A DNA stretch of 64,000 bases from Candidatus Woesebacteria bacterium. GTDB lineage: Bacteria > Patescibacteriota > Microgenomatia > UBA8517. Below the pieces are notes generated by a model. The model searched no databases. It saw only the letters and a program-made list of their open reading frames with translations, and was not told where the DNA came from. Positions 20,474 through 47,597 of the stretch are shown piece after piece (position 1 is the first letter of the stretch; each line of letters starts with the position of its first letter). Position numbers and translations under genes: made by a program. The DNA lies in the NCBI GenBank assembly GCA_013374855.1, contig CP055308.1, positions 465,833 to 529,832 on the forward strand, written 5' to 3'.

Positions 20474-21391
20474 ATGGGAATACATTTTAAGACAGCGGTA
20501 AGGAATATAATAAGATCTCCTTTTCAGGCTTTTGCTGCGCTTTTTGTTTTAATGGTTACTTTTTTTATAATTAGTTTACTTTCTGTTGTTCTTTATTCGT
20601 CTGGAAAAGTTTTGTCTTATCTTGAGACTAGGCCTCAAGTTATAGCTTTTTTGAAAGCTGATGCCAAAGAGGGCGATATTTTTAATCTTCAGCAAAGGCT
20701 ATCTTCTGACAAGCGAGTTAAGGATGCCAAATATGTGACTAAAGAAGAAGCTTTAAAGATTTACAAAGATGCAACTTCTGACAACCCTCTTTTAGCGGAG
20801 CTTGTAAGTCCTACTGCTTTTCCGGCAAGTTTGGAACTTTCTTTGGTAAGTTTGGATTATGCCAATGAATTTATTACGGAGCTAAAAAAAGAGCCGATTG
20901 TGGATCAGGTTGGGTTTACAGCAAATCTTGGTGGTGAGGCAACTTTGGAAACAACTATTAATCGTATAAGATCAGTAATAAACAATATTCGTTTGGGGGG
21001 AGTTATTTTTGCTCTAGTTTTGTCTTTGACTTCTCTTTTTGTCTTACTTGTGATTATCAGTTTAAGGCTTATGTCAAGAAAGCAGGAAGTTGATATTTTG
21101 AATCTGATTGGGGCAACTCCCTTGTTTGTGGCAATTCCTGTTTTCCTTGAGGCATTAATTTATGTTTTGGCTGGTGTTTTTTTGGGTTGGCTTTTGGCGT
21201 TTGTTTTGGTATTGTATTTTGCTCCTGCTTTGACTTCTTATTTTGGAGAAATAGAAATTTTGCCAAGGGAAGCCATTTCTCTTTTTAAACAATCTCTTAT
21301 TTTATTGGTTCTGGAATGGATTGTTGGTTCTTTTCTGGCAGTTTTAGGCAGCTTTCTTGCTATTTCTCGCTTGTCTAAGAAGAAGTCTTAG
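20474..21391 (+). CDS. ftsX: cell-division permease-like protein FtsX
   Basis: One N-terminal TM helix, an extracytoplasmic domain of about 100 aa, and three C-terminal TM helices (the FtsX topology); immediately follows ftsE. Confidence 0.85.
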   Translation: MGIHFKTAVRNIIRSPFQAFAALFVLMVTFFIISLLSVVLYSSGKVLSYLETRPQVIAFLKADAKEGDIFNLQQRLSSDKRVKDAKYVTKEEALKIYKDATSDNPLLAELVSPTAFPASLELSLVSLDYANEFITELKKEPIVDQVGFTANLGGEATLETTINRIRSVINNIRLGGVIFALVLSLTSLFVLLVIISLRLMSRKQEVDILNLIGATPLFVAIPVFLEALIYVLAGVFLGWLLAFVLVLYFAPALTSYFGEIEILPREAISLFKQSLILLVLEWIVGSFLAVLGSFLAISRLSKKKS

Positions 21392-22566
21392 TGTGTCTAA
21401 AGATGAAGTTTTTAAAAAGAGCAGCTATTTTTTTAATTGTTTTTTTGGTCTTTCTGTCTTTTTTTCTGCCTGTCTTAGCCCAAAGTGAATTTGACAGAGA
21501 TGCGAGGCTTAAGGAACTGGAAGTGCAGATTAAGCAATATGAGGAAGAGCTTTCTAGATTACGGAGTCAATCTGCTACCCTGACTAATCAGATAGCACAA
21601 TACGATGCTCAAATTAGGCTAGCCGAGCTTCAGATTGAGGAAACTCAAAGAAAAATAGAGCTTTTGACGGGTCGCATAGATCAACTTGAGGTTTCCCTTG
21701 TTGCTTTGACTAAAGCTTTTTCTGAAAGAGCAGTAGAAACTTATAAAATGGCTCGTTTGGGGGATCCTCTTTTTTATGTTGTTGCCTCGCCAAATCTTTC
21801 TGTTGCGGTTTCAAGGTTTCATTATTTAAAGCTAATCCAGCGTTCGGATCAGGAGCTTTTATTAAGGCTTCAATCAGCGCAAAATAATTATCAGGACCAA
21901 AAGCAGGATCAGGAGTCTCTTCAAAAACAGCTTGAAAAACAGAAAGCAAATTTAGATGCGCAAAAGGCAGCTAAAGCTAATCTTCTTGCAATAACAAAAA
22001 ATGATGAAAGATATTATCAACGGCTTTTGTCTCAAGCTAAGAGTCAGCTTGCAGCTTTGAGGCGGTTTGTTGTCAGTCAAGGTGGGGCAACTATTTTGCA
22101 AAATCAAACTAAATGTGATTCTTGGGGTTGCTATTACAACCAGCGGGATAGCCAGTGGGGAACGATAGGAATTGGTGGTTCTTCTTATTCTGTGGCAGAA
22201 TATGGCTGTCTTATTTCTTCAATTGCAATGATTGCCACCCATTATGGAAGGAAGATGACGCCGGCAGATATTGCAACAAACCCAAATTTTTTTGTTCCCG
22301 GCACAGGTTATATTTATCATCAAGCAGAGGGAATGCCTTTTACCATTAGTACTGCTTCTAAAGGACAGCTTGACAGCCTTCTTGCGTCAGGGCCTGTGAT
22401 AGCCGGCCTTTATTCAGGGCCGGATCATTTTATAGTTATCTTGAAAAAAGAGGGGGATAACTACAGAATGCACGATCCTTTTATGCCAGATGGGGCGAAT
22501 CGTCTTTTGACTGAAAAATATAGTGTTTCTGATATTTCCAGCCTTCGTTTGGTTAGTTTTAAGTAG
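21391..22566 (+). CDS. secreted coiled-coil protein with C-terminal C39-like cysteine peptidase domain (PcsB/EnvC-analogous candidate)
   Basis: Signal peptide, then about 200 aa of heptad-rich Q/E/L/R sequence, then AEYGCLISSIAMIATHYG (C39 Cys motif) and GPDHFIVILK (His motif). Abuts or overlaps the ftsX stop. Confidence 0.65.
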   Translation: MCLKMKFLKRAAIFLIVFLVFLSFFLPVLAQSEFDRDARLKELEVQIKQYEEELSRLRSQSATLTNQIAQYDAQIRLAELQIEETQRKIELLTGRIDQLEVSLVALTKAFSERAVETYKMARLGDPLFYVVASPNLSVAVSRFHYLKLIQRSDQELLLRLQSAQNNYQDQKQDQESLQKQLEKQKANLDAQKAAKANLLAITKNDERYYQRLLSQAKSQLAALRRFVVSQGGATILQNQTKCDSWGCYYNQRDSQWGTIGIGGSSYSVAEYGCLISSIAMIATHYGRKMTPADIATNPNFFVPGTGYIYHQAEGMPFTISTASKGQLDSLLASGPVIAGLYSGPDHFIVILKKEGDNYRMHDPFMPDGANRLLTEKYSVSDISSLRLVSFK

Positions 22567-23300: not shown

Positions 23301-24527
23301 TTGCCTTTGAAATTTAATATTTTATTTAATTCTTTTAATATTAAACATATAATGAAAAAAAATTTTTTGTTTTTTGTTTTTGGGGGTCTGTTTTTTGTTT
23401 TTCTTGTCTTTGAGTTTTGTTCTCCCGTTTCGGCTGCTTTTAATTTTTATATTTCAGATGTAAATCCTAAAGAGGTTTTTTCGAAAGAACAGGAAATTGA
23501 AGTAAAAGTGGTTGTAGAATCTTTGCCTATTTCGAGCGATTCTTTTTTTAGGGTTTCTATTAAAAAAGGGAACTCGTTTGTTGGTTATATGATGATTAAT
23601 AATGAGTGGGTGAAGATGGGTTCTTTATCGTCTGATAAAGAAAATAATTTGTGTACTCGTTATTATAAGGTTAATTCTGATGGAGTTTATGATTTTAGGT
23701 TGAAAATAGGTAGTGATGTTGAGATTGCTAATGGGGAATATATAGTTAAAGTTCATAGATTTCCTTATAATTATAATGGTAGTGGCAAGTGTGGCGATTA
23801 TGATTCTTCTGAAGAACAAGTGGAGTTTAAGGTAAATGTTATTCTTCCTACTCCTTCTCCCACTCCAGCACCTACTCAAAGTTCAACTTCTTATCCAAGT
23901 GCATCTTCTGCTACAGTCAAAATTTCTCAACCTAAAGATCAAAATGGTGGAGATATTCTTGGATCACTGAAAATTTATATTGATGGTAGTTATGTTGATA
24001 AATCTGCACCGAAAACTTATACTTTTGGTGATGGTAAGACTTGTGGATCAAACAATGTTCCTTGTGGTTTTGGAACACATACTTTTAAAGTAGAAAAGAC
24101 AGGCTATCTTCCTTGGGTTAAGACTGCAGATATAACTGTCGGTAGTAATTATGAATTTGATCCAGTATTGATTTTAGCCTCTCCTTCTCCTACGCCAACA
24201 ATTAAATCATCTCCTACTGCTACCGCTTCAGCAACTCCAAAATCAACCCCGGTTGACATTTCCACATCGACAGCATCCGGAATTTTGGCAGAAGATGTTT
24301 TTTCAAATGAATCAGTATTGGGTGCAGAAAGCATAGAAAAAACTCCTCAACCTGAAGAAAATATATCAGCTGATCCAAAACTGAAAGCAGCAGCCTTGTT
24401 TTTTATAACAGCTGGTGTTTCTTTTTTGGGGTCTGCTGTGTATGCTTATATAAGGTCTAAAAATAAAAAAGGGAAGAATGAAGAGAAATCAGACGAGGTT
24501 GAAGAAGAAAGTGACGAAAATCATTAG
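23301..24527 (+). CDS. cell-surface protein, hypothetical (signal peptide, PSPTP linkers, C-terminal TM anchor)
   Basis: N-terminal hydrophobic signal, two PT-rich linkers (LPTPSPTPAPTQ, SPSPTPTIKSSPTATASATPKSTP), and a C-terminal TM helix with an acidic tail. Confidence 0.55.
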   Translation: MPLKFNILFNSFNIKHIMKKNFLFFVFGGLFFVFLVFEFCSPVSAAFNFYISDVNPKEVFSKEQEIEVKVVVESLPISSDSFFRVSIKKGNSFVGYMMINNEWVKMGSLSSDKENNLCTRYYKVNSDGVYDFRLKIGSDVEIANGEYIVKVHRFPYNYNGSGKCGDYDSSEEQVEFKVNVILPTPSPTPAPTQSSTSYPSASSATVKISQPKDQNGGDILGSLKIYIDGSYVDKSAPKTYTFGDGKTCGSNNVPCGFGTHTFKVEKTGYLPWVKTADITVGSNYEFDPVLILASPSPTPTIKSSPTATASATPKSTPVDISTSTASGILAEDVFSNESVLGAESIEKTPQPEENISADPKLKAAALFFITAGVSFLGSAVYAYIRSKNKKGKNEEKSDEVEEESDENH

Positions 24528-24939
24528 CCTTTGGTTGCCCCCAATTTTATGGATGGGGATTATTTTCTTTTTAAGCTCTCGCCCAACCATTAAGACTACT
24601 CAAATCTACTGGCAGGATTTTTTAATTAAGAAAACGGCTCATTTTGTTGAATATGCAATTTTATCTTTTCTTTATATTCGTGCTTTCTTGGGAAGCAGTA
24701 TGTCACAAAAAAAATCTTTTATTCTTGCATTTTTGATAAGTCTTGTTTATGCGATAAGTGATGAATATCACCAATCTTTTGTGCCGGGAAGAGAACCGAG
24801 AATAAGAGATGTGGTGATTGATTCAATGGGTGCTCTTTTTGCAATTTATCTTGTCGCTTTTAGGCCTTCTTGGGCGAGAAAGCTGGTTGGAAAGTTGATA
24901 CCTTATAAAGTATTAGGAGAATTGAAGAGTAAAAATTAG
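24478..24939 (+). CDS. VanZ-like family membrane protein
   Basis: LWLPPILWMGIIFFLSSRP ... AISDEYHQSFVPGREPRIRDVVIDSMGALFAIYLV matches the VanZ family. The start overlaps the upstream gene by up to 50 nt, so an internal GTG start is possible. Confidence 0.75.
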   Translation: MKRNQTRLKKKVTKIISLWLPPILWMGIIFFLSSRPTIKTTQIYWQDFLIKKTAHFVEYAILSFLYIRAFLGSSMSQKKSFILAFLISLVYAISDEYHQSFVPGREPRIRDVVIDSMGALFAIYLVAFRPSWARKLVGKLIPYKVLGELKSKN

Positions 24940-25086: not shown

Positions 25087-25722
25087 ATGGAAAAAAGAAA
25101 AGCTTACGCTTTCTATCTTGATGTAGCGGGTGAGGTCTTAATTATATTTTCTTTTCTTATTCTGTTTTTCACCTACGGTCCTGTCGCTAAAGAAGAGGTT
25201 GCTTATCAGGTAAGGCAGACTTTAGATAAGTCAATCAAGACAAAAGAAATAGAGCCTCCCAATTATGAGTTTTCTATAGTTGTTCCCAAACTCTCTGTTT
25301 CTGCACCTGTTTTTGCGTCGGTTAATCCTTTTGACGAGAAGGAATATCTGCCTGTTTTACAAAAGGGTGTTGCGCATGCTAAAGGTTCAGCACTTCCCGG
25401 TCGGTTTGGTAATACTTATCTTTTTGCTCATTCAACTGATGCCTTTTACAATGTGGGCAGATACAATGCTGTTTTTTATCTTTTGGGTAAACTTGAAAAA
25501 GGAGACAAGGTATACATTTACTATAATAACCAAAAGTACACGTACGAAGTAACCGATAAAAAAGTGGTTCCTCCCACTGAGGTTTCTTATCTTGGCAAAT
25601 CTGGCAGGGGTAACACCTTAACTCTTCAGACTTGTTATCCTCCAGGAACCACGCTGAAGCGTCTTGTGGTATTGGCAGAGATGGAAGGAGATGTTAGTTT
25701 TGATTTTCCCTTAAAATATTAA
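25087..25722 (+). CDS. sortase (transpeptidase) family protein
   Basis: N-terminal TM anchor, catalytic His in LFAHSTDAF, TLQTCYPPGT (TLXTC active-site Cys) and a downstream Arg (KRLVVLAE). Confidence 0.85.
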   Translation: MEKRKAYAFYLDVAGEVLIIFSFLILFFTYGPVAKEEVAYQVRQTLDKSIKTKEIEPPNYEFSIVVPKLSVSAPVFASVNPFDEKEYLPVLQKGVAHAKGSALPGRFGNTYLFAHSTDAFYNVGRYNAVFYLLGKLEKGDKVYIYYNNQKYTYEVTDKKVVPPTEVSYLGKSGRGNTLTLQTCYPPGTTLKRLVVLAEMEGDVSFDFPLKY

Positions 25723-25793: not shown

Positions 25794-28700
25794 ATGAATA
25801 AAAAAATAGTCTTTAAGCTGTTTTCTTTAGTTTCTGCCTTTTCTATTCTTTTTAACTTGTTTTATACGCCTCTTTATGTTTTAGCTCAAGAAACAGGCTC
25901 TCAAACTGATCAATCAACACCCGCACCAACATTGGCAGTAGAGACTAATCCAACACCGGAAGTTACTTTTACTCCAGAACCAAATCAAACACCAGAGGCA
26001 ACCTCAACACCAGAGTCAACTCCAACACCAGAAGAAGTTTCAACTCCCACTGCAACACCAACATCAGAACCTACAATAGAACCTACTCCTACTTTGCTTC
26101 CAGGCCCGGAGGTTGTTTTAGGAGAGAAAACAGAAAGTTCTTCTTCTCCAACAAATTTACCAACTAGCTTTGATACAAGTGATAGTGACAAAGTTTTTGA
26201 ATCTTCCGCACAGCTTTTCTTAACTGACGCTTCTGTTGAGAAAGAGTGTCTTGCAGATCAAAATGTAATTGATAGTCAGGATGTTGATTGGTATATTTCG
26301 ACTGATAGTGGGTATGCACAAACGAAATCTAATGTTCAGATTGGAGTAAGATATGTTTTTCCATTGGAGAATAAGGTAACCTTAACTTTTAAATGTCTTC
26401 CTAAAGATGAGTCTTTAAGAAGTTCTTTAAAGATCCAAAAGGTTAAGGTCTCAGATTTGAATCTTCCTGAAGGGTTAAATCCTTACGGCGAATGGGCTTA
26501 TGATATTACCACTGGTATGAAAGATGGTACTTTTGAGTATGATATCACCCTTCCTAAACCAGAAAATCAAGAAGCGAAAGTTTTCTATATGGAAGATGTT
26601 AGTGGGGAAGTTAAGAATGTTGAAGATGAAAAGATAAATCAGGAAGGAGATAAGATTAGAGTTGAAAGTTTGGATCATTTTTCTGTTTTTTATTTAGTAA
26701 CAGTTTCTCCGGGTGGGGTAAATAGTTTAGAGAAGTTTGATAGTCTTAGTGATTGGATCACATCTAATTCTTCTGTTGCTTCTGGTTCAGGTGATGATTC
26801 ACCTTTAGATGGCAATTTTGCCAAGATTGACGCTGGAGGATATATTTGTCGTGATGTGGATGCTCTTGGTTTTCAAAATCTTTTGCTTCAGTTTTACTGG
26901 AAAGGAGATAAAGATGCAGGGTCACATGATAATGGCTATGTTTATGTTAAAAAAGGTGGCAATTGTTCAGACGATGATGGTTGGACTAAGGTTTATAAAG
27001 CAGACTTAGATACCAACAGAGATAAAAATGGTTATCCTCAATGGAGTTCTCAAATTTCTATTAATTTAAATTCCAGTTTTTCTAATTCCAATTTTAAAAT
27101 TAAATTTAAAAATTCCTCAAACGACGCATCAGATGAGTTTTTTAGAGTTGACAACTTTAAGATTACAGGAACGAAAATAAACTGGCCAGATGATTGGACT
27201 GTTCCAAGTTGCTATCTGGATCCAACCGGGGAATCGGGTGTAGGCAATACAAGAGTTGATTTGGATGGGACTTCTACAAGCAAGCCTGCGGCTTCTTATA
27301 AGTGGACAAATGACTATTTATACTTGCGTTTCAGAGTAGATGGTAATCCTGGTACTGCGTCAAATCCAGATAATTTTGCTTGGTCAGTTTTGGTCCAAAA
27401 TACACCTCCTAAATATCAATATTTGATTACTCTTGACGGACTGAACAATCAGCTAAAGATTTTAGAAAACAATCAGTCAACTGCTTCTAATGTTACCTGG
27501 AATCCAATTTTAAATGATCCTGCAGAGACTTTGCTTTGGTCAGGTCCAAGCTCAATGTATGCCAATATTGTTCATGACAGCTCGACAGTTGACGATCATT
27601 ATATTATTTTAGCTGTGCCTATAAGTGCTTTGCCTAGTTCGGTAACTAGCTCCTCAATTTTTTATTTTGCTACAGCTGCCGATATCAATAATTTTAATAA
27701 AGATCACCTGAATTGTTATGAACAGCCACAAACGGGTTTGATTAGGGTTGAGAAGAGCGTTAAGGAAGGAAACACTTGGACTAACCAAGCTGAAAGTATC
27801 AGTCTTTTTAAATGGCGGGTTGATGATGAGACACAGTGGCGAGATATGGGGACTAGTGTTGAACTTTCAGCTGGTTCTCATTCTATAACAGAAAATAGTG
27901 TTATTGGTTATCAATTTGATGGTTGGTATTATGCTGGCAGTGGAAATGGTTCCTGTATTAGCCCAGAGGGGACCATCTTACCTATTAATTTGAATATTGT
28001 TGCTGGTCAACAAAAAGAGATTGTTTTATGTAACTCCCGTTTGCCTTATTGTGGAGATGGAATTAAAAATGGGGAAGAACAGTGTGATGGAACTGATGGA
28101 GTGACCCCAGGGCAAAACTTCTGCACTAAAAGTTGTACTTTAGTTCCAATTTATGATGGAGAAGATAGTTGTCCTGCAGGGACTGTTAAAAGCCAGACTC
28201 CGATTTTATCTAAAGTAATTTCGGCAACCGATCCTGACGGAGAAACATTTAATTTGGATATCGGAGGAAAATATATTTTTGAGGTAAGTGGTACTTATAG
28301 TTATGATAAAAATAATAGTGGTAAGTTAGCTGATGCGGCTTATGGAACAAAAGATAATTGGTCCTCTACAAGAACCGATATTGGTATTTGGGGAACAAAT
28401 AGAGGGGTAACTTCTTTATTGGCTGATTTAGGGAGTGGTGTGGGAGTAGTTGAATGGGATAATAATCAAATGTTTAATCCTGATCATACCTACCAGAAAT
28501 ATTATTCTCCAACCAAAAATTCAGTCCAATTTTTAATCAGTGATTGGTATGATAACTGGTTTAATTCTTCTTACAACAATCAATCTGCTATGTCAGATAA
28601 TTCCGGAAGTTTGACTTTAAATGTTTATAAATGCGAGCCAGTATCTGAGGTCAAAATTTGCAAGTATGACAACAACCAACAGCCACTTTCTGGTTGGCGG

Positions 28701-31700
28701 GTTTATTTATTGGGAGAAAAATTAAACAGTTTTTCTATTCCTTCAGACGGAAGTGTTGTCAACGCGGGTAATTATTCTTCCGGTAGTTATGCTCTGATTG
28801 CCTCGGGTGTTTATAACTATGGAGATCCTCGGATGAATGCTGATGCGGCTAATTCATATCGTTATGTTGGTCTTCCTTGCGCCGGTTCAACTGATGGTTG
28901 GGTTAACGGCGAAGCCTCAAGTTGTATGAGCAACTATTTGTCTTTAAATTTATCAACAAGTGGCGGGCCAACTGCTCCGGGTTGGGGACTGTACTACAAT
29001 CCTGAGCATATATATGCAAAAGCATTTACGGGTGGAAATTTGCAGGCAAAAATTTGGGATACTTGTAGTTTAAGTCAGCCAGAAGGCTGTTATGGTGATA
29101 ACGAAGGAAAATTGAAACTTGATGTTTATAAAGGTTATGTTGGCGATACTGGGAATGACGGATGTGTCACCTTTAATAATGTCCCTTATGGCAGTTATCA
29201 ATTGGACGAAGTGTTAAAAGAAGGATGGAGAAAAGAGTCTGGCCAAGGAGAAGTTGTGGTAGATGGTTCTTCAGAAGTTTTCAGTTTAATTAACGCTTTA
29301 AATTATGGTTCAATTTCAGGAAAGAAATATGATGGTTCGGAGGAAGGAACGGTACTTTCCGGTTGGTCAATAGTTTTGACAGGTAACTCTCATGTTTCTT
29401 CTTTAAATGTTCCTGCTAATGGGGAAGTTGTTAATTCTGCTCCTTTAGAATCAGGCAAGAAATATTTAGTAAAAGTTTCTGGCGCAGCTCAAGCGGGTGA
29501 CAATATTCACTTTGACGCTGAGTGTGCCAGTGATGGCGGAGTGACGCCTTGGATTAATGGTGTTCCACGATATTTATCCTATGGCGAAAATCTCTTAGAC
29601 CTAAAAATTAATGACAATTTTGTTGATTGGGGCAGTTGTGAGCCGGTAAATCATACTTATTATTATTTGCTTAATGGTAATGGCAGTCCGGTATCTTTTA
29701 AGGTTTATGATATTTATTACCCAAATAACACTGGAAGTTTAACGGTTGAAATTTATGAAGTGGTGAAAGAGGATGTTACTGACAGTACTGGTTATGGTTG
29801 GAATGATGTTTTAGCTGGAGATTATCAACTTTGCGAGATTATTCAGACAGGTTGGAATCAAACTAAACCGGGAACATTTGGTGCTCCAACTTGTTATTCT
29901 GTAAAAGTTACCCCTGGTTCTAATCAAACTTTTGATTTTGTTAATTTTAAGCTTGGAACTATTCAGGGTAGAAAGTATGAAGATTTAAATGGTAATGGTT
30001 CAGAAAACAGTGGTGAACCATATCTTAATGGATGGACAATTAGGCTTTATAAAGAGGGTGAGGGTTGGGATTTAGTTGATTCAAAGACCACAGGACACAC
30101 TGGCGTGTTGGGCGAGTATAAATTTGAGAATCTTGAACCTGGCAGGTATAGGGTTTGTGAAGTTCTTAAAGATGGTTGGGTTCAAACTTCGCCAACTGGA
30201 GTAACTAACAACATTGCTTCTGATGAGGCACCAAGCTGTCGGGTTGTTAATATTAATACTTCAGCTCAGATTTTAACTGATGAGAACTTTGGCAACTTTA
30301 AGCTAGGTAGAATTTATGGCTATAAGTATGATGAAGATGGGGAAACTGGGATTGGAGGTTGGAAGATATTTATAGATAATGATGGGGATAAAAGCTTTGA
30401 CGAAGGTGAAGTGTCGGTTCAGACTGGAAATGATGGCTATTTTGAATTTACAGGATTGACTTCTGGTACTTACAATGTGTGCGAGGTTGAACAAAGTGGT
30501 TGGCAGAGGATGTATCCTGTGGGAACTAACTGTCAGTCTATTGACATAAAATCAGGATCAGAAAAAGAAATTTATTTCCAAAACAGAAAGGTTGTTTTGG
30601 GATTGACTCTTACCAAGTTAAACGACGCTGTTTTGGGTTTGTCAGCAGGAGGGCAGATTAATTATAAGTTAGTAATTAAAAACACGGGTAATCAATCCTT
30701 GAGTGGTGTTACTATTAAAGACGCCCCAGCTGGTGGTTTTACATTTGTCGCAGGAAGTGGTTTTTTGGGTAGTGACCCAATAACGCCAACATTTAGCGGT
30801 GGTTATATTGAATGGTATATTGGCGTCTTAGCTGCAGGGGAAGAGAAAACTTTAACCTACAAGATGCAGACAGGTTCTGATCTTGTTAATGGAGTTTATC
30901 CAAATATTGCAATAGCGACAGGTATTTATACTCCTTCTGAATATGTTCCAGAGGAAGTTGTGGGGATATTTAGTCCAATTGTGGTTGAGGCTTTGGCAGT
31001 AGACGATAATGCAGAAGAAGGACAAAGAATAGAAAGTAATGAAGGAACACCTGTTAATTCTGAGGTAAGGATTGCCTCTAGCCTCTCTTATTCAACCGGA
31101 GTTGGCTCAACAGGGCAAGTTCTGGGTGCTTCAACTGAAGTGGGAGGCCAAGTATTGCCTGCTGCTGGTTCTTCTACTTGGAATCTTGCGCTTGCGCTTT
31201 TGTCTTTGATATTTGGTTTTGGGTTAAAAGCGTTAGGTATTGCAGTTGAAAGAGGGAAAATCGACACAAGAAGAGTTAGAAGGGGTCTTAAAAAAGCAAG
31301 CTTATTCTTGTCATCTTTGGCTTTGTTTTTGGTTTTGGCTTCTACAACTAAGGCTTTTTCTGATTATGTTTATATAACAAAACTTGATTCTTATCTAAAT
31401 AAAGAAAACTTTTACCTTTCCTACTCAGCTTTGTCTGAAAATCCGATTTCGGCGCAATTTTATGTAAGAAGAGATGGAGATGCTACATGGAGAACTGTGG
31501 GTAGCTTGCTAAATGGCGCTTCAGGACAGGTTGAAGTAAAGTCTGGTGATATTTACGGCGGTGATGGAAAATACTTCTTTAAGGTAGTTATAAATAGTGG
31601 AACAGCATCAGACGAAACCTCAACAACAATAGACAGAAGCAGCCCAGATCCAGTTCGGGATTATAGAAAAGAGAAGATTTCAGATGGGCATTATAAGCTT

Positions 31701-32225
31701 CATTGGAGAAATCCTGATAATATTGATTTTGATAAAGTAAAGATTTATCGTTCAGAAAACACTAATTTTACTGCTGATTCTTCAACTGAAGTTGGCACTG
31801 TTTGGGGGACAGCTGGGTCTGAGATGACTTGGGAGAATGCTGCAGCGCCTGGGAAAGAATACTATTTTGCTATAAGAGCAATAGACAAAGCAGGCAATGC
31901 TTCTTCTGTTGTTGCAGATCCAGAAACGCAAGTGGTAGCTGGTGCTGTCTTGGGTGAATCAACTAAAGCTCCAGAAACAGAAGAGGTAAAGATTTTGCCA
32001 AAAGAAAAGAAAGGCGAAGTTTTAGGAGAAGAAAAAGATGCTAGCAAAGGGGAAGCTACCACAGAAAGCACCCCTTCTCCAGAGAGTGAAAAAGAAGAGA
32101 CTGGTGGAGTTTTGGGACAGGCTGTTAAATTTGCCAAGGAGAAAACAAAACTGACTCTTGTTATTGCTCTTCTTTTGGGTCTTGCTTCTTACTTTGCCTC
32201 AAAGTTTTTAAGGAGAAGAGGTTAA
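25794..32225 (+). CDS. giant (2143 aa) cell-surface protein with Cna-B/SdrD-B-like and DUF11-like repeats, FN3-like domain, Pro/Thr/Glu-rich linker, internal LPAAG sorting-signal-like segment and C-terminal TM anchor
   Basis: Signal peptide, then a PT-rich low-complexity tract (aa 40-110, nt about 25910-26120). At least five repeats carry the G.Y.(V/L)CE....GW motif (GRYRVCEVLKDGW, GTYNVCEVEQSGW, GDYQLCEIIQTGW, GSYQLDEVLKEGW). A DUF11-like block spans nt about 30594-30930. LPAAG at 31155-31169 is followed by a hydrophobic stretch, RRVRRGLKK, and a second signal-like segment. An FN3-like block follows (YKLHWRNPDN...YYFAIRAIDKAGN), then the final hydrophobic segment plus RRRG. Confidence 0.8.
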   Translation: MNKKIVFKLFSLVSAFSILFNLFYTPLYVLAQETGSQTDQSTPAPTLAVETNPTPEVTFTPEPNQTPEATSTPESTPTPEEVSTPTATPTSEPTIEPTPTLLPGPEVVLGEKTESSSSPTNLPTSFDTSDSDKVFESSAQLFLTDASVEKECLADQNVIDSQDVDWYISTDSGYAQTKSNVQIGVRYVFPLENKVTLTFKCLPKDESLRSSLKIQKVKVSDLNLPEGLNPYGEWAYDITTGMKDGTFEYDITLPKPENQEAKVFYMEDVSGEVKNVEDEKINQEGDKIRVESLDHFSVFYLVTVSPGGVNSLEKFDSLSDWITSNSSVASGSGDDSPLDGNFAKIDAGGYICRDVDALGFQNLLLQFYWKGDKDAGSHDNGYVYVKKGGNCSDDDGWTKVYKADLDTNRDKNGYPQWSSQISINLNSSFSNSNFKIKFKNSSNDASDEFFRVDNFKITGTKINWPDDWTVPSCYLDPTGESGVGNTRVDLDGTSTSKPAASYKWTNDYLYLRFRVDGNPGTASNPDNFAWSVLVQNTPPKYQYLITLDGLNNQLKILENNQSTASNVTWNPILNDPAETLLWSGPSSMYANIVHDSSTVDDHYIILAVPISALPSSVTSSSIFYFATAADINNFNKDHLNCYEQPQTGLIRVEKSVKEGNTWTNQAESISLFKWRVDDETQWRDMGTSVELSAGSHSITENSVIGYQFDGWYYAGSGNGSCISPEGTILPINLNIVAGQQKEIVLCNSRLPYCGDGIKNGEEQCDGTDGVTPGQNFCTKSCTLVPIYDGEDSCPAGTVKSQTPILSKVISATDPDGETFNLDIGGKYIFEVSGTYSYDKNNSGKLADAAYGTKDNWSSTRTDIGIWGTNRGVTSLLADLGSGVGVVEWDNNQMFNPDHTYQKYYSPTKNSVQFLISDWYDNWFNSSYNNQSAMSDNSGSLTLNVYKCEPVSEVKICKYDNNQQPLSGWRVYLLGEKLNSFSIPSDGSVVNAGNYSSGSYALIASGVYNYGDPRMNADAANSYRYVGLPCAGSTDGWVNGEASSCMSNYLSLNLSTSGGPTAPGWGLYYNPEHIYAKAFTGGNLQAKIWDTCSLSQPEGCYGDNEGKLKLDVYKGYVGDTGNDGCVTFNNVPYGSYQLDEVLKEGWRKESGQGEVVVDGSSEVFSLINALNYGSISGKKYDGSEEGTVLSGWSIVLTGNSHVSSLNVPANGEVVNSAPLESGKKYLVKVSGAAQAGDNIHFDAECASDGGVTPWINGVPRYLSYGENLLDLKINDNFVDWGSCEPVNHTYYYLLNGNGSPVSFKVYDIYYPNNTGSLTVEIYEVVKEDVTDSTGYGWNDVLAGDYQLCEIIQTGWNQTKPGTFGAPTCYSVKVTPGSNQTFDFVNFKLGTIQGRKYEDLNGNGSENSGEPYLNGWTIRLYKEGEGWDLVDSKTTGHTGVLGEYKFENLEPGRYRVCEVLKDGWVQTSPTGVTNNIASDEAPSCRVVNINTSAQILTDENFGNFKLGRIYGYKYDEDGETGIGGWKIFIDNDGDKSFDEGEVSVQTGNDGYFEFTGLTSGTYNVCEVEQSGWQRMYPVGTNCQSIDIKSGSEKEIYFQNRKVVLGLTLTKLNDAVLGLSAGGQINYKLVIKNTGNQSLSGVTIKDAPAGGFTFVAGSGFLGSDPITPTFSGGYIEWYIGVLAAGEEKTLTYKMQTGSDLVNGVYPNIAIATGIYTPSEYVPEEVVGIFSPIVVEALAVDDNAEEGQRIESNEGTPVNSEVRIASSLSYSTGVGSTGQVLGASTEVGGQVLPAAGSSTWNLALALLSLIFGFGLKALGIAVERGKIDTRRVRRGLKKASLFLSSLALFLVLASTTKAFSDYVYITKLDSYLNKENFYLSYSALSENPISAQFYVRRDGDATWRTVGSLLNGASGQVEVKSGDIYGGDGKYFFKVVINSGTASDETSTTIDRSSPDPVRDYRKEKISDGHYKLHWRNPDNIDFDKVKIYRSENTNFTADSSTEVGTVWGTAGSEMTWENAAAPGKEYYFAIRAIDKAGNASSVVADPETQVVAGAVLGESTKAPETEEVKILPKEKKGEVLGEEKDASKGEATTESTPSPESEKEETGGVLGQAVKFAKEKTKLTLVIALLLGLASYFASKFLRRRG

Positions 32226-32269: not shown

Positions 32270-33730
32270 TCATTCTATTTTAAAAAGCATTAGTGAGTCT
32301 GAAGGTGTTTCTTTCCAAGGAGGTTTATTGATTTCTTTAATTAAACTAATATTTGGATTTTGAACAAAATTTGATTTGTGGATTATAAAGTAGGTCTCTT
32401 TTTCTTTCGCAGCTTCATATACATAAGGCTCAAGGTATGAGTTGCTATACCAGATTTCAACACTGGGGTTATTAAAAAGATAAATTCCAATTCCATCAGG
32501 GAGTGTTCCGAAAGCGCCTGCCGTGACCAGTAAAATACTTTTTTCTTTTGCTTTCTCTTCTATAAATTCTGCCATTTCTTTGAGCCCATATCCGGCAGTC
32601 CATCCTTCAAAGTAACCTTCTTTTTCTTTTGCGGGTAGATTTGCATTTTGTGGATCTTTCAATAAATGAAAATCAAAAATTAAAGCTGGTATTAACAAAG
32701 TAATTGTGATTGCGACAACAATAAGCTTATTTTTAATGTTTTCTGTTATTTTGGAAAGGGAATAACTGGCAATGAAAATGAATGGTACTACGCTTGGTAG
32801 AATGTATCTTGCTGTATATACCTTAAGTAGGGAGGTTAAAGCAAGAAATGGTATAAGACCCCACAGTAAGATAACAATGTTTGTTCTTTCCCTTTTATAT
32901 AGAGAATAAAAGACGCCGAATATGAAAAGTATAAAAGCTGGCCAAGTCATCATTTTAGTCATAAAATCAAAGCTTAGTTTTATATTTCCTAGGAAAGGGT
33001 CAAATGGAACTTCCCAAAGTCGGCTTATTTGAAAGTGATAGTATTGGTCTCTTTCTGAAAGTTTTTCAAAATTTGAACTTATTCTAAGCAAGTTGATAAT
33101 TCCAAATCCAATAAAAGCTGCTATTGCAAGATTTTTTATAGATTTTTTAACTTCTTTTTTCTTTGCTGTAATTAAGGCTGTGGGTAAAGCGATGAAGTTA
33201 AAAATGCCGGGGGTTTTTGTAAGGTAAGATAATCCAAGTAGTACTCCCAGTAAGATAGTTTTTTTGATTGAACCTGTGTTTACTACTTCTAGAGTCATAA
33301 TAAGTGACCAGAAAGAAAGACCAGCAAGAAGAGAATCAACTAATGCCATTCTGTCAAAGAATACCAAAAACGGAATAATTGCAAATAATATTCCGGCGAT
33401 AATGGTGGTTTGTTGGTTAAAAAATCTTTTTCCAATGTAGATCGAACCTAGGATTGAAATTAACCCAAAAATAACTGATGTAATTCTTCCAGCAATTAAG
33501 GGATCTTTTATTGTTTTAAGAAAAGGTATCATAAGCCACATAAAAAGTGGGGTTTTGCCATCTGTTAGCGGGATGAATAGGTTTTCTTTTGGAGATTGAA
33601 TTATTTTTTGTGTCCAGCGTATGTATATTCCTTCATCACAAAACACTGGTTGGAGGTCTAGATTTATTGTTCGTAGAACAAGGTATAAAGCTAAAAAAAT
33701 AATGAGTATAAAATTATTTTTGTTTCTCAT
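32270..33730 (-). CDS. GT-C membrane glycosyltransferase, GT39/GT83 (PMT/ArnT-like) family
   Basis: More than ten TM helices, a conserved first-loop DE motif (PVFCDEGIYIRW), and a C-terminal extracytoplasmic domain. Confidence 0.75.
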   Translation of the reverse strand: MRNKNNFILIIFLALYLVLRTINLDLQPVFCDEGIYIRWTQKIIQSPKENLFIPLTDGKTPLFMWLMIPFLKTIKDPLIAGRITSVIFGLISILGSIYIGKRFFNQQTTIIAGILFAIIPFLVFFDRMALVDSLLAGLSFWSLIMTLEVVNTGSIKKTILLGVLLGLSYLTKTPGIFNFIALPTALITAKKKEVKKSIKNLAIAAFIGFGIINLLRISSNFEKLSERDQYYHFQISRLWEVPFDPFLGNIKLSFDFMTKMMTWPAFILFIFGVFYSLYKRERTNIVILLWGLIPFLALTSLLKVYTARYILPSVVPFIFIASYSLSKITENIKNKLIVVAITITLLIPALIFDFHLLKDPQNANLPAKEKEGYFEGWTAGYGLKEMAEFIEEKAKEKSILLVTAGAFGTLPDGIGIYLFNNPSVEIWYSNSYLEPYVYEAAKEKETYFIIHKSNFVQNPNISLIKEINKPPWKETPSDSLMLFKIE

Positions 33731-33787: not shown

Positions 33788-33858
33788 GTGGACTTACCGA
33801 GAATCGAACTCGGATCTCACCCATGCGAAGGGTGCGTTTTACCATTAAACTATAAGCC
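33788..33858 (-). tRNA. tRNA-Ala (anticodon CGC)
   Basis: The reverse complement GGGCTTATAGTTTAATGGTAAAACGCACCCTTCGCATGGGTGAGATCCGAGTTCGATTCTCGGTAAGTCCA folds as a cloverleaf with the G3:U70 Ala identity pair, anticodon loop TTCGCAT and T-loop TTCGATT. CCA is not encoded. Confidence 0.9.
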
Positions 33859-33942
33859 CTAATCGTATTTTATTATATTCTAGAATGTCTTTCCAATGAA
33901 ATTGCTTGATAATAATTAGATTTTCATTGTCTTTTTTTTATA

Positions 33943-34983
33943 TTGTTGAAGTTATTTTTAGTTAAGGTTATCATTTATGTAATGACTGGTTTTGATTTTT
34001 TCAATCATCTTTTTTTGCCTCATCATTCTAACAACCAAAAGCCTCGTATTCTGCACCCCCCTGCTATTTTAATAGTTGTTTTTATTCTTCTTGGTTTCCA
34101 GATTTTTCTTCATCTTTTAAAACAAAGTAAACCTGATATTTTAGGATATGCATCAAAAATTTCACTGGAGGAAGTTTTGAGGCTAACCAATGAAAAAAGA
34201 CGTGAAGCTGGTCTGTCTCCACTAAAACTTGATCCAACCTTGTCGCAGGCTGCCAAAAACAAAGGGGAGGATATGTTGAACAAGGATTATTGGGCCCATG
34301 TTTCTCCTGATGGTATTGAACCTTGGAAATTTTTTCTTGATGCAGGTTATAAATATCGCTACGCAGGGGAAAATTTGGCGCGGGATTTTTCTGATTCTGC
34401 TTCTATTGTCTCGGCTTGGATGGCTTCCCCCACCCACAGAGATAATATACTTTCACCAAAGTATGAGGATATTGGGCTTGCTGTTGTAGAAGGAGATTTA
34501 GCTGGAACCGATACTACTATAGTGGTTCAGCTTTTTGGAACAAGGCTTTCTACAACTGGAGAGGTTTCTCCTGTCGCACGGGCCAGATCAACTTCCTCGC
34601 CGAATAAGAATACAACAGCAGAGGCAAAGAATATCGAAAATACTTTGGTTCAAAAACCTCAACCAACTTTAATTCCAACTCCACAACCAGCTCAGTCTGT
34701 TAATTTGACAGACAGCAACTCTGTAGTACTTGAGGCAGGTACTTCACTTGAAAAAACAGGCTTTGGGAGTATTATTCCAAATATTTCTTTTGATCCTTTT
34801 GCTGTTTTTAAAGGTACATCTTTGTTTTTTCTCTTTCTTTTTCTTTTTGTCTTTATTCTTGATTTCTTTATTGTTAAAAAAAGAAATATTGTAAGAATTT
34901 CAGGCCGTACTTGGGCACATGTTTTGTTTTTATTGACATCTTTAATATTAGTGATGATAGTAAAAGCGGGTGAGATTTTATGA
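33943..34983 (+). CDS. CAP/SCP/PR1-like (YkwD-type) secreted domain protein with C-terminal TM anchor
   Basis: CAP-domain block NEKRREAGLSPLKLDPTLSQAAKNKGEDMLNKDYWAHVSPDG ... AWMASPTHRDNILSPKYEDIGLAV, followed by an S/T/P-rich linker and a C-terminal hydrophobic segment. Confidence 0.75.
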   Translation: MLKLFLVKVIIYVMTGFDFFNHLFLPHHSNNQKPRILHPPAILIVVFILLGFQIFLHLLKQSKPDILGYASKISLEEVLRLTNEKRREAGLSPLKLDPTLSQAAKNKGEDMLNKDYWAHVSPDGIEPWKFFLDAGYKYRYAGENLARDFSDSASIVSAWMASPTHRDNILSPKYEDIGLAVVEGDLAGTDTTIVVQLFGTRLSTTGEVSPVARARSTSSPNKNTTAEAKNIENTLVQKPQPTLIPTPQPAQSVNLTDSNSVVLEAGTSLEKTGFGSIIPNISFDPFAVFKGTSLFFLFLFLFVFILDFFIVKKRNIVRISGRTWAHVLFLLTSLILVMIVKAGEIL

Positions 34984-36858: not shown

Positions 36859-38514
36859 ATGGTCAAAAGAAGAATTTTTGATTTGAACTATTTTTTCCTT
36901 GAGGGGAAAAGGCCTTATTTTTGGATTGTTTTTTTAATCCTTTTTGTTTATGGTAGGAGCATCTTTTTTGGATTTTCATACTTTGATGATAATGTGTTGA
37001 TTTTAGACAATCTGTTTTTTCTCCGCGATATTTCTAATTTATTCAAATCATTTACAATGGAGGTATTTCATGTTTTGCATTTTTCAGCTGCTTATTACAG
37101 ACCCATGTTGACTGTTTCTTATATGTTTGATGCTTTGATTTCTGGCGATAGCCCTTTTGTTTATCATCTAACGAGTCTAATAGTTCATGTTCTTGTTTCT
37201 TTTTCTCTTTTCTATTTTCTTTCGATACTTGGATTTAGGAAGGAGTTTTCTTTTTTTGCCGCGGTGTTTTTTTCAATTCATCCAGTTCTATCTCAGGCAG
37301 TTGTTTGGATTCCGGGAAGAAATGATTCTCTTCTTGCCCTTTTTGTACTTTTAAGTTCTATTTTCTTAATAAAATTTGCAGATGAGAAAGAGTTAAAATT
37401 TTTTTGGCTTTCATCTTTATTTTTTTTCCTAGCTCTTTTTACAAAGGAATCGGCTCTTTTATTTCCCTTTCTTCTTGCTTTTTATTTCCTACTTTTGGCA
37501 GACAAAGATAAAAAGAAGTCTTTTGTTAAAATTTCTCCGCTTTTGTTTCTTGTATGGGGGGCGATTTTTTTCTTATGGTTTTATCTAAGAAGCATTGCCT
37601 TGTCTGATAATCCTCTTCGTTATTCTTTCTTTGATTCTATAAATCAGATTTATAGAAATCTACCAGCGGTTTTGCTTTTTTTGGGTAAGGTGTTTTTACC
37701 ATTTAATCTTTCTGTTTTACCAACTTTAGTTGATTCTGGTCTTTTCTATGGCTATATCTCTTTTGTGTTTTTTGTTTTATTGATTATTTTTTCCAAAAAC
37801 AAAAATTGGAAATGGATACTTTTTGGTATTCTTTGGTTTTTGGTTTTTCTTCTTCCTTCTTTTGTGAGACCCTCTGATTTTATGCCTGATTTCTTAGAAC
37901 ACAGAATTTATCTTCCTATAATTGGTCTGTTTTTTATTTTTTCTCAAATATCTTTTGTTTATAATATTTCTTTTTCTGGAGGGAAAAGCTTTGTATTATT
38001 GGGTATTATATTGTCTTTTTCGTTTATTAACTTTTTTCATATAGGTAATTTTAAGGATAGGATTTCTTTTTGGGAGTCGGCAGTTAAAACTTCTCCTTCT
38101 CATCCTCTAGCACATAGAAACTTGGGAGCCGTGTATTACCTTGAGGGGGATTTAGACAGAGCTTATAAAGAGTTTCAAAAAACTTTAGAGATTAATTCCA
38201 ACGAACCAATGGTACACAATAATTTAGGTCTGATCTATTTAAGAATGGGTGATTATGATAGGGCGGAGGAAGAGTTTAATCAAGAATTAAAAATTAATCC
38301 GCTTTATGATAATTCTCTTTTTAACTTAGGGCTTTTGTATTGGAAAAGGGGTGAAAAAGAAAAAGCTGCTCAGATGTGGTTGAAAACAGTTTCAGTTAAC
38401 CCTGATCATAAGGACGCTTTGGCGGCTTTGTCCGTTTATTATAAGGAGGTGGGTGATATCACAAAAGCTGAGTATTATTATAATCAGGCAGTTTTGCGGG
38501 GATCTTCTTTCTAG
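36859..38514 (+). CDS. TMTC-like polytopic membrane protein (GT-C-type, DUF1736-like) with C-terminal TPR repeats
   Basis: About 370 aa with more than ten TM helices and an early FDDNVLILDN loop motif, followed by four or five TPR repeats (AHRNLGAVYYLEGDLDRAYKEFQKTLEIN, HNNLGLIYLRMGDYDRAEEEF, FNLGLLYWKRGEKEKAAQMW). Confidence 0.6.
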   Translation: MVKRRIFDLNYFFLEGKRPYFWIVFLILFVYGRSIFFGFSYFDDNVLILDNLFFLRDISNLFKSFTMEVFHVLHFSAAYYRPMLTVSYMFDALISGDSPFVYHLTSLIVHVLVSFSLFYFLSILGFRKEFSFFAAVFFSIHPVLSQAVVWIPGRNDSLLALFVLLSSIFLIKFADEKELKFFWLSSLFFFLALFTKESALLFPFLLAFYFLLLADKDKKKSFVKISPLLFLVWGAIFFLWFYLRSIALSDNPLRYSFFDSINQIYRNLPAVLLFLGKVFLPFNLSVLPTLVDSGLFYGYISFVFFVLLIIFSKNKNWKWILFGILWFLVFLLPSFVRPSDFMPDFLEHRIYLPIIGLFFIFSQISFVYNISFSGGKSFVLLGIILSFSFINFFHIGNFKDRISFWESAVKTSPSHPLAHRNLGAVYYLEGDLDRAYKEFQKTLEINSNEPMVHNNLGLIYLRMGDYDRAEEEFNQELKINPLYDNSLFNLGLLYWKRGEKEKAAQMWLKTVSVNPDHKDALAALSVYYKEVGDITKAEYYYNQAVLRGSSF

Positions 38515-47520: not shown

Positions 47521-47597
47521 TGGTGCCGCCAGGGAGACTCGAACTCCCGATTTTCTGGTTGAGAACCAGACGTCCTAGACCACTAGACGATGGCGGC
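47521..47597 (-). tRNA. tRNA-Glu (anticodon CUC), CCA encoded
   Basis: The reverse complement GCCGCCATCGTCTAGTGGTCTAGGACGTCTGGTTCTCAACCAGAAAATCGGGAGTTCGAGTCTCCCTGGCGGCACCA has a 7-bp acceptor stem, anticodon loop TTCTCAA, T-loop TTCGAGT and a terminal ACCA. Confidence 0.9.

Follow-up and report, generated by a model that had tools for sequence, protein, structure and literature searches.

The giant open reading frame (ORF) at positions 25794..32225 of the forward strand of a 64,000-nucleotide (nt) stretch of a Candidatus Woesebacteria genome (contig CP055308.1, assembly GCA_013374855.1; the whole stretch is hereafter called the window) probably encodes two components of a conserved patescibacterial surface cassette, fused in a precursor that would be cut by sortase and by signal peptidase. 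The first component would be a giant adhesin with an LPxTG-type sorting motif, substrate of the sortase encoded next to it, and the second its obligate neighbour of ~300 amino acids (aa), a membrane module with two FN3-like domains. The fusion is genuine and selectively maintained. It is not a one-off accident but a widespread alternative gene architecture, which is the rule in a whole major clade.

An internal sorting signal followed by a second signal peptide

An initial annotation of the window, made from the sequence alone, had noted a segment resembling a cell-wall sorting signal at aa 1788-1835 of the giant ORF, immediately followed by a signal-peptide-like segment. It had proposed either that two genes for surface proteins had been joined with loss of the stop between them, or that sortase cuts a polyprotein. 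As it had stated, the reading frame is continuous: translation of 25794-32225 (+) gives one uninterrupted frame of 2143 aa plus stop, in which the stretch GQVLPAAGSSTWNLALALLSLIFGFGLKALGIAVERGKIDTRRVRRGLKKASLFLSSLALFLVLASTTKAFSDYV is found. The elements that it described are present (LPAAG, a transmembrane (TM) segment, TM1, and a loop with 8 lysine or arginine (K/R) residues), although the numbering was one residue off, V being aa 1787. The joining of two genes is supported by the existence of one-gene and two-gene loci in relatives, and the cut by sortase is predicted from the conservation of the motif and the adjacent sortase gene.

The extended sorting motif STGQVLGASTEVGGQV-LPAAG spans 31107..31169 (+), with LPAAG at aa 1788-1792 (nt 31155-31169); sortase is predicted to cut between A1791 and G1792, and GGQVLPAAGSST is the candidate substrate peptide at this junction. 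A hydrophobic segment and a positive cluster come directly after the motif. The former is TM1, the stop-transfer part of the sorting signal (aa 1796-1818, 23 aa; 31179..31247, +; Kyte-Doolittle mean 2.16 over 19 aa), whose equivalent in split loci is the C-terminal end of the upstream protein; the latter is the presumably cytoplasmic basic loop ERGKIDTRRVRRGLKK (aa 1819-1834; 31248..31295, +; 8 K/R and 2 D/E). This loop supplies both the charged tail for the sorting signal and the n-region for TM2, the second signal peptide, with sequence ASLFLSSLALFLVLASTTKA (aa 1835-1854; 31296..31355, +). FSDYV follows, with a predicted signal peptidase I site between TKA and FS. In the window the sorting signal is not at the extreme C-terminus, as 309 aa come after the charged cluster; in the split orthologs L001 and L003 it is.

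The last ~310 aa of the protein, here called the module, belong to a family that also exists as a standalone gene of ~300 aa, placed right behind a gene for an LPxTG protein, in many cases overlapping it, and with a neighbouring sortase gene. In an alignment with 33 standalone homologs, TM2 matches their N-terminal signal peptides column by column; the V-x-A motif for cleavage lines up too, as does the conserved start of the mature protein. The -1 Ala is kept in 90% of 188 modules. Since the basic loop of the window has neither ATG nor GTG and no such start precedes TM2, the module can be made there only within the long polypeptide.

A Kyte-Doolittle scan of the whole protein finds only four hydrophobic segments: an N-terminal signal peptide (aa 5-30), TM1, TM2 and a C-terminal TM segment at aa 2118-2136, and the charge distribution agrees with the positive-inside rule. 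The N-terminal signal peptide covers aa 1-31 (MNKK...YVLA, followed by QE; 25794..25886, +; hydropathy peak at aa 5-30, n-region with 3 K), and a sortase is encoded in the same genome (25087-25722). Just before LPAAG lies a stalk made of domain families typical of Gram-positive adhesins (29973..30914, +): Pfam matches to SdrD_B at aa 1394-1484 (E 1.1e-15), SpaA prealbumin-like at 1507-1567 (1.3e-14) and DUF11/CLIPPER at 1617-1707 (4.6e-9). The same families occur on the upstream gene of the split locus L003.

A pattern scan returned, besides the junction, a single other match, in a short ORF overlapping a longer ORF on the opposite strand. An NCBIfam scan of junction and module matched no curated model, the LPXTG-anchor model TIGR01167 going undetected at E <= 0.1, and Rfam and tandem-repeat scans found no RNA element and no repeat at the junction.

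A tandem-FN3 membrane module

A search with the last 311 aa retrieved 50 proteins, of which ~45 are standalone, 292-323 aa long and start with M-(F/K)-K-K plus a signal peptide. E-values go down to 1e-129, and most of the top 30 matches cover 83-100% of the query, so that homology extends over the full module: signal peptide, two beta-sandwiches, linker, C-terminal TM and basic tail. When a profile was run against 1.84 billion cluster representatives, 607 module matches were obtained at E <= 1e-30. The two closest database matches are themselves fused forms.

The initial annotation had counted 'a further 310 aa' containing an FN3-like domain, a final TM segment and RRRG. The content stands, with two FN3-like domains rather than one; the count starts at K1834, and 287 aa follow the S of KAFS. 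AlphaFold2 predicts for the module an N-terminal helix, two beta-sandwiches, a disordered linker and a C-terminal TM helix, with a mean predicted local distance difference test score (pLDDT) of 82.3. The two FN3-like beta-sandwich domains (aa 1858-2049; 31365..31940, +) have pLDDT above 90 throughout. Foldseek against the Protein Data Bank (PDB) gave tandem FN3 pairs as top matches (E 4e-8); only such generic matches were obtained, and they offer no functional clue for the module. The linker is acidic, with motifs of the G-x-VLG-E-E type (31956..32120, +; module residues 222-276, pLDDT below 50), and the GxVLGEE column is conserved in the alignment of module homologs. The last segment, TM3 (aa 2118-2136), is identified by hydropathy as a C-terminal membrane anchor with the presumably cytoplasmic tail KFLRRRG (32145..32222, +); it falls within a confident AlphaFold2 helix at module residues 274-309 and is present in all standalone homologs.

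Two residues of the module stand out among the 188 aligned: P118, conserved in 100%, and Lys1959 (module K126; 31668-31670, +), which belongs to a Y-x-K-E motif and, with 97%, is nearly invariant. Lys1959 lies within P-x-P-V-x-x-Y-x-K-E at the start of the second FN3 domain and bears a loose likeness to the pilin-motif lysine.

One gene or two in related genomes

Related loci are almost all from Patescibacteria, mainly Microgenomates lineages, in which sortase is near-ubiquitous (PMC6744442). The closer relatives of the window have single ORFs, and L001 and L003 are split. In L003 the order is sortase, a 1276-aa protein with SpaA, SdrD_B and DUF11 domains, a 298-aa module and a CAP-family protein, in synteny with the window. 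L001 has the same order from the large protein onward, including module and CAP; no sortase is visible because the contig begins inside the large gene. The upstream proteins of L001 and L003 end in LPGTG or LPATG, a TM segment, K/R residues and a stop (...VLGAATELPATG, TM, EKKERKNV-stop and ...VLGASTELPGTG, TM, ERKGKNAKN-stop), and the ATG of the separate module gene (298-306 aa) overlaps the upstream stop by 8 or 14 nt.

To survey the family we scanned one genome per species, which gave 59 loci; four unrelated FN3 matches were removed, and L001-L005 and the window were added. Single open frames with the internal element number 38, and 22 loci were scored as not fused. In 19 of these 22 the readable upstream ORF ends with LPxTG (one LPSSG variant), TM, K/R and stop, and contig ends truncate the remaining three. 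Close relatives were also sought in metagenomes, which yielded contigs from other samples at 71-87% identity; all five that cover the junction are fused. In all, 39 genome or assembly loci are fused. Among the best 150 of the 607 cluster representatives, the module forms the C-terminal end of a protein of 400-3000 aa in 79 and is standalone in 66, the two forms being about equally common; the other five, like loci L062-L065, were excluded as unrelated FN3-repeat proteins. An LPxTG-type motif precedes the module in 58 of 80 fused representatives. The initial annotation had held that homologs found uniformly as single long ORFs would speak for a conserved TM hairpin and against a fusion. This is not what the relatives show, as both one-gene and two-gene loci occur among them.

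The order motif, TM1, K/R loop, TM2 is kept in all 43 fused loci. The motif is [LM]PxTG or LPAAG in 41 of them, TM1 is 18-27 aa long, the loop has 3-23 aa (median 10) with 2-11 K/R, and TM2, of ~20 aa, has an (A/V)-x-A-type end in 42, often with a Pro at -4 to -6. The recurrence of the same ordered elements in 43 of 43 fused loci argues that the junction is not due to chance, and a short TM2 with Pro and an (A/V)-x-A end has the geometry of a cleavable signal peptide, not that of a permanent TM helix.

One fused relative, L005 (Patescibacteria GCA_042570525.1), carries at 1932-3510 genes for a Peptidase_M73 (camelysin/TasA-like) and a Peptidase_S24-like protein; they lie downstream of the module, from which ~0.7 kb with two small ORFs separates them. 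The Peptidase_S24-like gene possibly encodes a SipW-type signal peptidase.

Selection on the fused frame

Could the fusion be an artefact of sequencing or assembly, or a recent pseudogenising frameshift that joined two genes in one assembly? In split relatives one base change or a 1-nt indel would suffice for fusion, and the junctions are A-rich. However, the identical protein is found in the 802,554-bp NCBI contig and in the Logan assembly of SRR6186653, and six independent metagenome contigs have the same fused junction at the same length. From VLPAAG to AFSDYV there are exactly 73 codons, with no indel, in the window and these six related contigs (70-87% identity). The ratio of nonsynonymous to synonymous substitution rates (dN/dS) at the junction is 0.16-0.30 over the seven contigs, hence below 0.31, and the other two frames contain 2-6 stops; moreover, the downstream half lacks a separate start codon. 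The two identical assemblies and the indel-free, purifying-selected junction dispel the concern, raised with the initial annotation, about an assembly or indel artefact, and we regard this explanation as hardly credible.

Within the junction the conservation is uneven: VLPAAGS is invariant in the seven contigs, which are otherwise only 47-77% identical there. This bears on the possibility that LPAAG is a decayed relic and TM1-loop-TM2 a permanent hairpin, in which case the protein would stay whole as an unprocessed anchor with three TM helices, the giant ectodomain and the FN3 module both being outside. The T-to-A change in the motif, the relatives with a VLGAATG variant devoid of LP, and a topology that is self-consistent without any cleavage all fit such an anchor. 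The invariance of VLPAAGS, with the rest of the junction down to 47% identity, does not, nor does the retention of the adjacent sortase in fused loci, even in L011 and L043, which have the variant motif. TM2, furthermore, keeps a short h-region, a c-region Pro and (A/V)-x-A, with no drift to a generic TM segment, and substrates with LPxAG are known (PMC3436756). An uncleaved anchor thus seems unlikely to us.

Interconversion of the two architectures

In one clade, the switch between one gene and two apparently occurs through a change in a single codon. Split loci of this clade read ...AAA AAG TAA ATG AAA..., and fused loci AAA AAA TAT ATG, AAA AAT ATG or AAA ACT ATG, with a sense codon at the position of the stop; TAA to TAT is a single substitution. 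Other split loci have a 4-nt ATGA overlap, or 8-14-nt overlaps in another frame, and there a 1-nt indel would fuse the genes.

A neighbour-joining tree of 107 modules, which is approximate, requires at least 5 changes under Fitch parsimony, with an ambiguous root. The window looks to be in a fused subclade nested among split relatives, as far as a tree that is not robust can tell, and a second major clade is fused throughout except for one split subclade. The window sequence GAAAGAGGGAAAATC resembles GAAAGGAAAAATG of L003 and is a candidate relic start codon, which would imply an ATG-to-ATC change plus a 1-nt deletion in the window. We consider this suggestive only, because the window and L003 are too diverged for proof.

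The adjacent sortase

The sortase gene (211 aa; 25087..25722, +; Pfam PF04203, E 1.4e-26) lies 71 nt upstream of the giant ORF. Its product has an N-terminal TM segment and, after a His in LFAHS, the catalytic Cys within LTLQTC and an Arg downstream of it. Of the sortase models, the general one, TIGR01076, is alone in passing its cutoff (63 bits against 39); no class model does, the best being class C, that of pilin-polymerising sortases (NF033745), with 69.6 bits against a cutoff of 160, so that the protein cannot be placed in class C. Of 53 related loci, 46 have an adjacent sortase homolog, and in the remaining seven the contig ends close to the module. In the window and in L003, L008, L010 and L011 the sortase gene directly precedes the giant gene; in most of the other loci it comes right after the module. 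In the window, too, the module is encoded immediately after an LPxTG-type protein with a sortase adjacent.

This obligate linkage of substrate, module and sortase over hundreds of lineages raises the question of whether the module could be a dedicated acceptor. Sortase would then join the LPAA-carboxyl of the adhesin to Lys1959, or to the N-terminus made by signal peptidase, and the adhesin would be covalently tethered to a membrane-anchored base; in fused forms the TM1-loop-TM2 hairpin would be excised and the halves rejoined. The conservation of K126 (97%) and P118 (100%) in 188 modules is consistent with this, as is the fact that the best-scoring class model is that of the pilin polymerases, which use Lys acceptors; the design is also analogous to that of PamR, a membrane-anchored protein with two FnIII domains proposed as the tether of a pilus in the candidate phyla radiation (CPR) (bioRxiv 10.64898/2026.03.03.709456). 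Yet the class C score is far under its cutoff, and the sortase, as read from its sequence, has neither the class C lid nor the C-terminal TM segment, with only ~63 aa preceding the catalytic domain. A structural role is possible for the conserved Lys, and nothing ties it directly to the sortase. We therefore consider a role of the module as acceptor quite improbable.

Proposed processing of the fused precursor

We favour the processing of a two-component precursor by sortase and signal peptidase. The topology, both cleavages and the acceptor are what we infer from the elements described above, and the charge pattern fits an out-in-out-in arrangement, with the ectodomain outside, the K/R loop inside, the FN3 module outside and RRRG inside. 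The N-terminal signal peptide would start the Sec export of ~1,760 aa, until TM1 halts transfer and leaves the K/R loop in the cytoplasm. TM2, acting as an internal signal peptide, would restart translocation so that the FN3 module is exported, and TM3 would halt transfer again, with RRRG remaining inside. Sortase, whose action is suggested by the conservation of the motif and by the adjacency of the sortase gene, would cleave between LPAA and G and pass the adhesin to an acceptor, presumably a peptidoglycan precursor, and signal peptidase I would cleave after TKA. This would yield an adhesin linked to the wall and an FN3 module anchored in the membrane, and a TM hairpin of ~60 aa would be discarded. 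The mature products predicted for fused and split versions are identical, which would explain why fusion and fission have been tolerated so often.

Several observations weigh against this scheme. The motif of the window is LPAAG instead of LPxTG, that is, an LPxAG variant where relatives mostly have LPATG; LPxAG is a natural variant of the sortase motif, documented but rare (PMC3436756, PMC2657157). In 22 of the 80 fused representatives, VLGAATG(S/A)xT takes the place of LPxTG. No curated sortase class fits the enzyme. In many fused relatives TM2 still begins with an in-frame Met, at which internal initiation is possible; the Shine-Dalgarno sequences upstream of this Met are poor (2-4 of 6 bases matching) and do not decide the matter, because several split loci are equally poor. 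Finally, the constant neighbourhood of module and substrate is unexplained if the two are merely co-expressed.

The subgroup with VLGAATG(S/A)xT followed by a TM segment comprises L011, L043 and these 22 representatives (for example, P0090 and P0092). L011 and L043 have kept an adjacent sortase. The sequence may be a non-canonical sorting motif, as xAxTG resembles the class E motif LAXTG.

A related element, (E/Q)VLGA(S/T)T, is found ahead of LPxTG in fused and split relatives alike, and the VLG motif stands directly before LPxTG in nearly all relatives. In the giant ORF, (E/Q/G)-VLG-(A/E)-(S/E)-T is repeated in linkers, at window positions 31107-31154 and at aa 108, 2052, 2076 and 2106 (nt ~26115, 31947, 32019 and 32109), and the module has a conserved copy, G-x-VLG-E-E, before its last TM segment. 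The motif might extend the recognition element of the sortase, mark a site for a protease or for glycosylation, or be the relic of a sorting signal.

Other features of the locus

The giant protein's N-terminal region (aa ~39-118) is of low complexity and rich in Pro, Thr and Glu; it contains an 18-nt tandem repeat of 2.5 copies (25988-26032) and produces a spurious TonB-like NCBIfam match. At aa 751-782 (28044-28139), CGDGIKNGEEQCDG... gives a weak match to the cysteine-rich acidic repeat TIGR02232 (E 0.011, below cutoff).

The genes around the locus are chromosomal housekeeping genes (FtsE/FtsX, SecA, ClpB-like ATPase, Lon, TrmD), and GC content is ~37%. The gene for a CAP-family secreted protein (33943..34983, +; Pfam PF00188, E 7e-19) serves as a synteny marker; in L001 and L003 it comes right after the gene for the module. 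Genes for PMT_2-family (Dol-P-Man-type) glycosyltransferases flank the locus at 32270-33730 (-) and 36859-38514 (+), the first being inserted between the giant ORF and CAP, whose counterparts are direct neighbours in L001 and L003. These genes may hint at glycosylation of surface proteins.

Further upstream, the gene after FtsX (21391-22566, +) has a C39-like peptidase domain; the syntenic gene of L003 is annotated PcsB/M23-like, and it looks as if the hydrolase partner of FtsEX had been swapped. A 408-aa ORF with a weak PEGA match and an uncertain TTG start (23301-24527, +) overlaps a VanZ-like gene (24478-24939, +) by 50 nt. Two tRNA genes, at 33789-33859 (-) and 47524-47597 (-), are the only Rfam matches of the window at the gathering threshold.

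Significance of the fusion

The locus defines a conserved three-part cassette made of a sortase, a giant LPxTG adhesin and a tandem-FN3 membrane module. It offers a natural example of how topogenic signals (stop-transfer segment, internal signal peptide and sortase motif) can make a gene fusion harmless. Fused and split loci are natural constructs for two questions, the processing of internal signals by sortase and the role of the linked FN3 partner. On the practical side, detectors of sorting signals that demand a C-terminal position will miss fused substrates. Were the module an acceptor after all, the reaction would amount to a sortase-driven form of protein splicing, and the adhesin of these ultrasmall episymbiotic bacteria would be membrane-tethered, not wall-linked.

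Comparison with known systems

The window protein shares with canonical sortase substrates the succession of a motif, a hydrophobic segment and a K/R cluster, an adjacent His/Cys/Arg sortase and a stalk of SdrD_B, SpaA and DUF11 domains. Unlike them, it has its sorting signal 352 aa from the C-terminus, LPAAG as motif and an (E/Q)VLGA(S/T)T extension before it.

Structural polyproteins of flaviviruses contain internal signal peptides that are cut by signal peptidase. There, as proposed for the window protein, the topology is determined by alternating stop-transfer and internal signals, which also define where cleavage frees the mature proteins. Polyproteins of this type are viral or eukaryotic and processed at the endoplasmic reticulum, whereas in the window a transpeptidase would make one of the two cuts and attach the product as well.

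Within the CPR, the 'Pam' pilus operon encodes PamR, a protein with two FnIII domains and a C-terminal TM segment, proposed as a tether (bioRxiv 10.64898/2026.03.03.709456). Compared by description only, PamR and the window module are both membrane-anchored tandem FnIII proteins encoded beside CPR genes for surface filaments or adhesins; the PamR system is chaperone-usher-like, whereas that of the window is sortase-based. Papers on CPR and sortase do not describe the architecture of the window protein, and literature searches for 'internal LPXTG' and for 'LPAAG' with sortase returned nothing.

The closest described precedent appears to be the arrangement of the streptococcal IgA1 protease, ZmpB and ZmpC (Zmps), in which LPXTG is followed by two TM segments, the latter of which has been proposed to act as another signal peptide (PMC3518915; the secretion model is credited there to Bender and Weiser 2006). 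The surface levels of these proteins depend on SrtA and are depleted in a srtA knockout (PMC13604702). Zmps and the window protein are alike in having a non-C-terminal LPXTG-type motif and two hydrophobic segments, the second with a proposed signal peptidase site, and the order of topogenic elements described for Zmps (PMC3518915) is found in the window. However, the Zmp element is near the N-terminus, with a short fragment before it and a large catalytic part after it, whereas that of the window is at aa 1788 of 2143; Pfam and NCBIfam scans of the window protein found no M26/Zmp domain. The C-terminal part of Zmps has no TM anchor, while the window module has TM3, and two-gene versions, which are not described in the cited Zmp papers, exist in the window family. 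We see the likeness as one of analogy, not of membership, because the Zmp element is N-terminal and unrelated in sequence.

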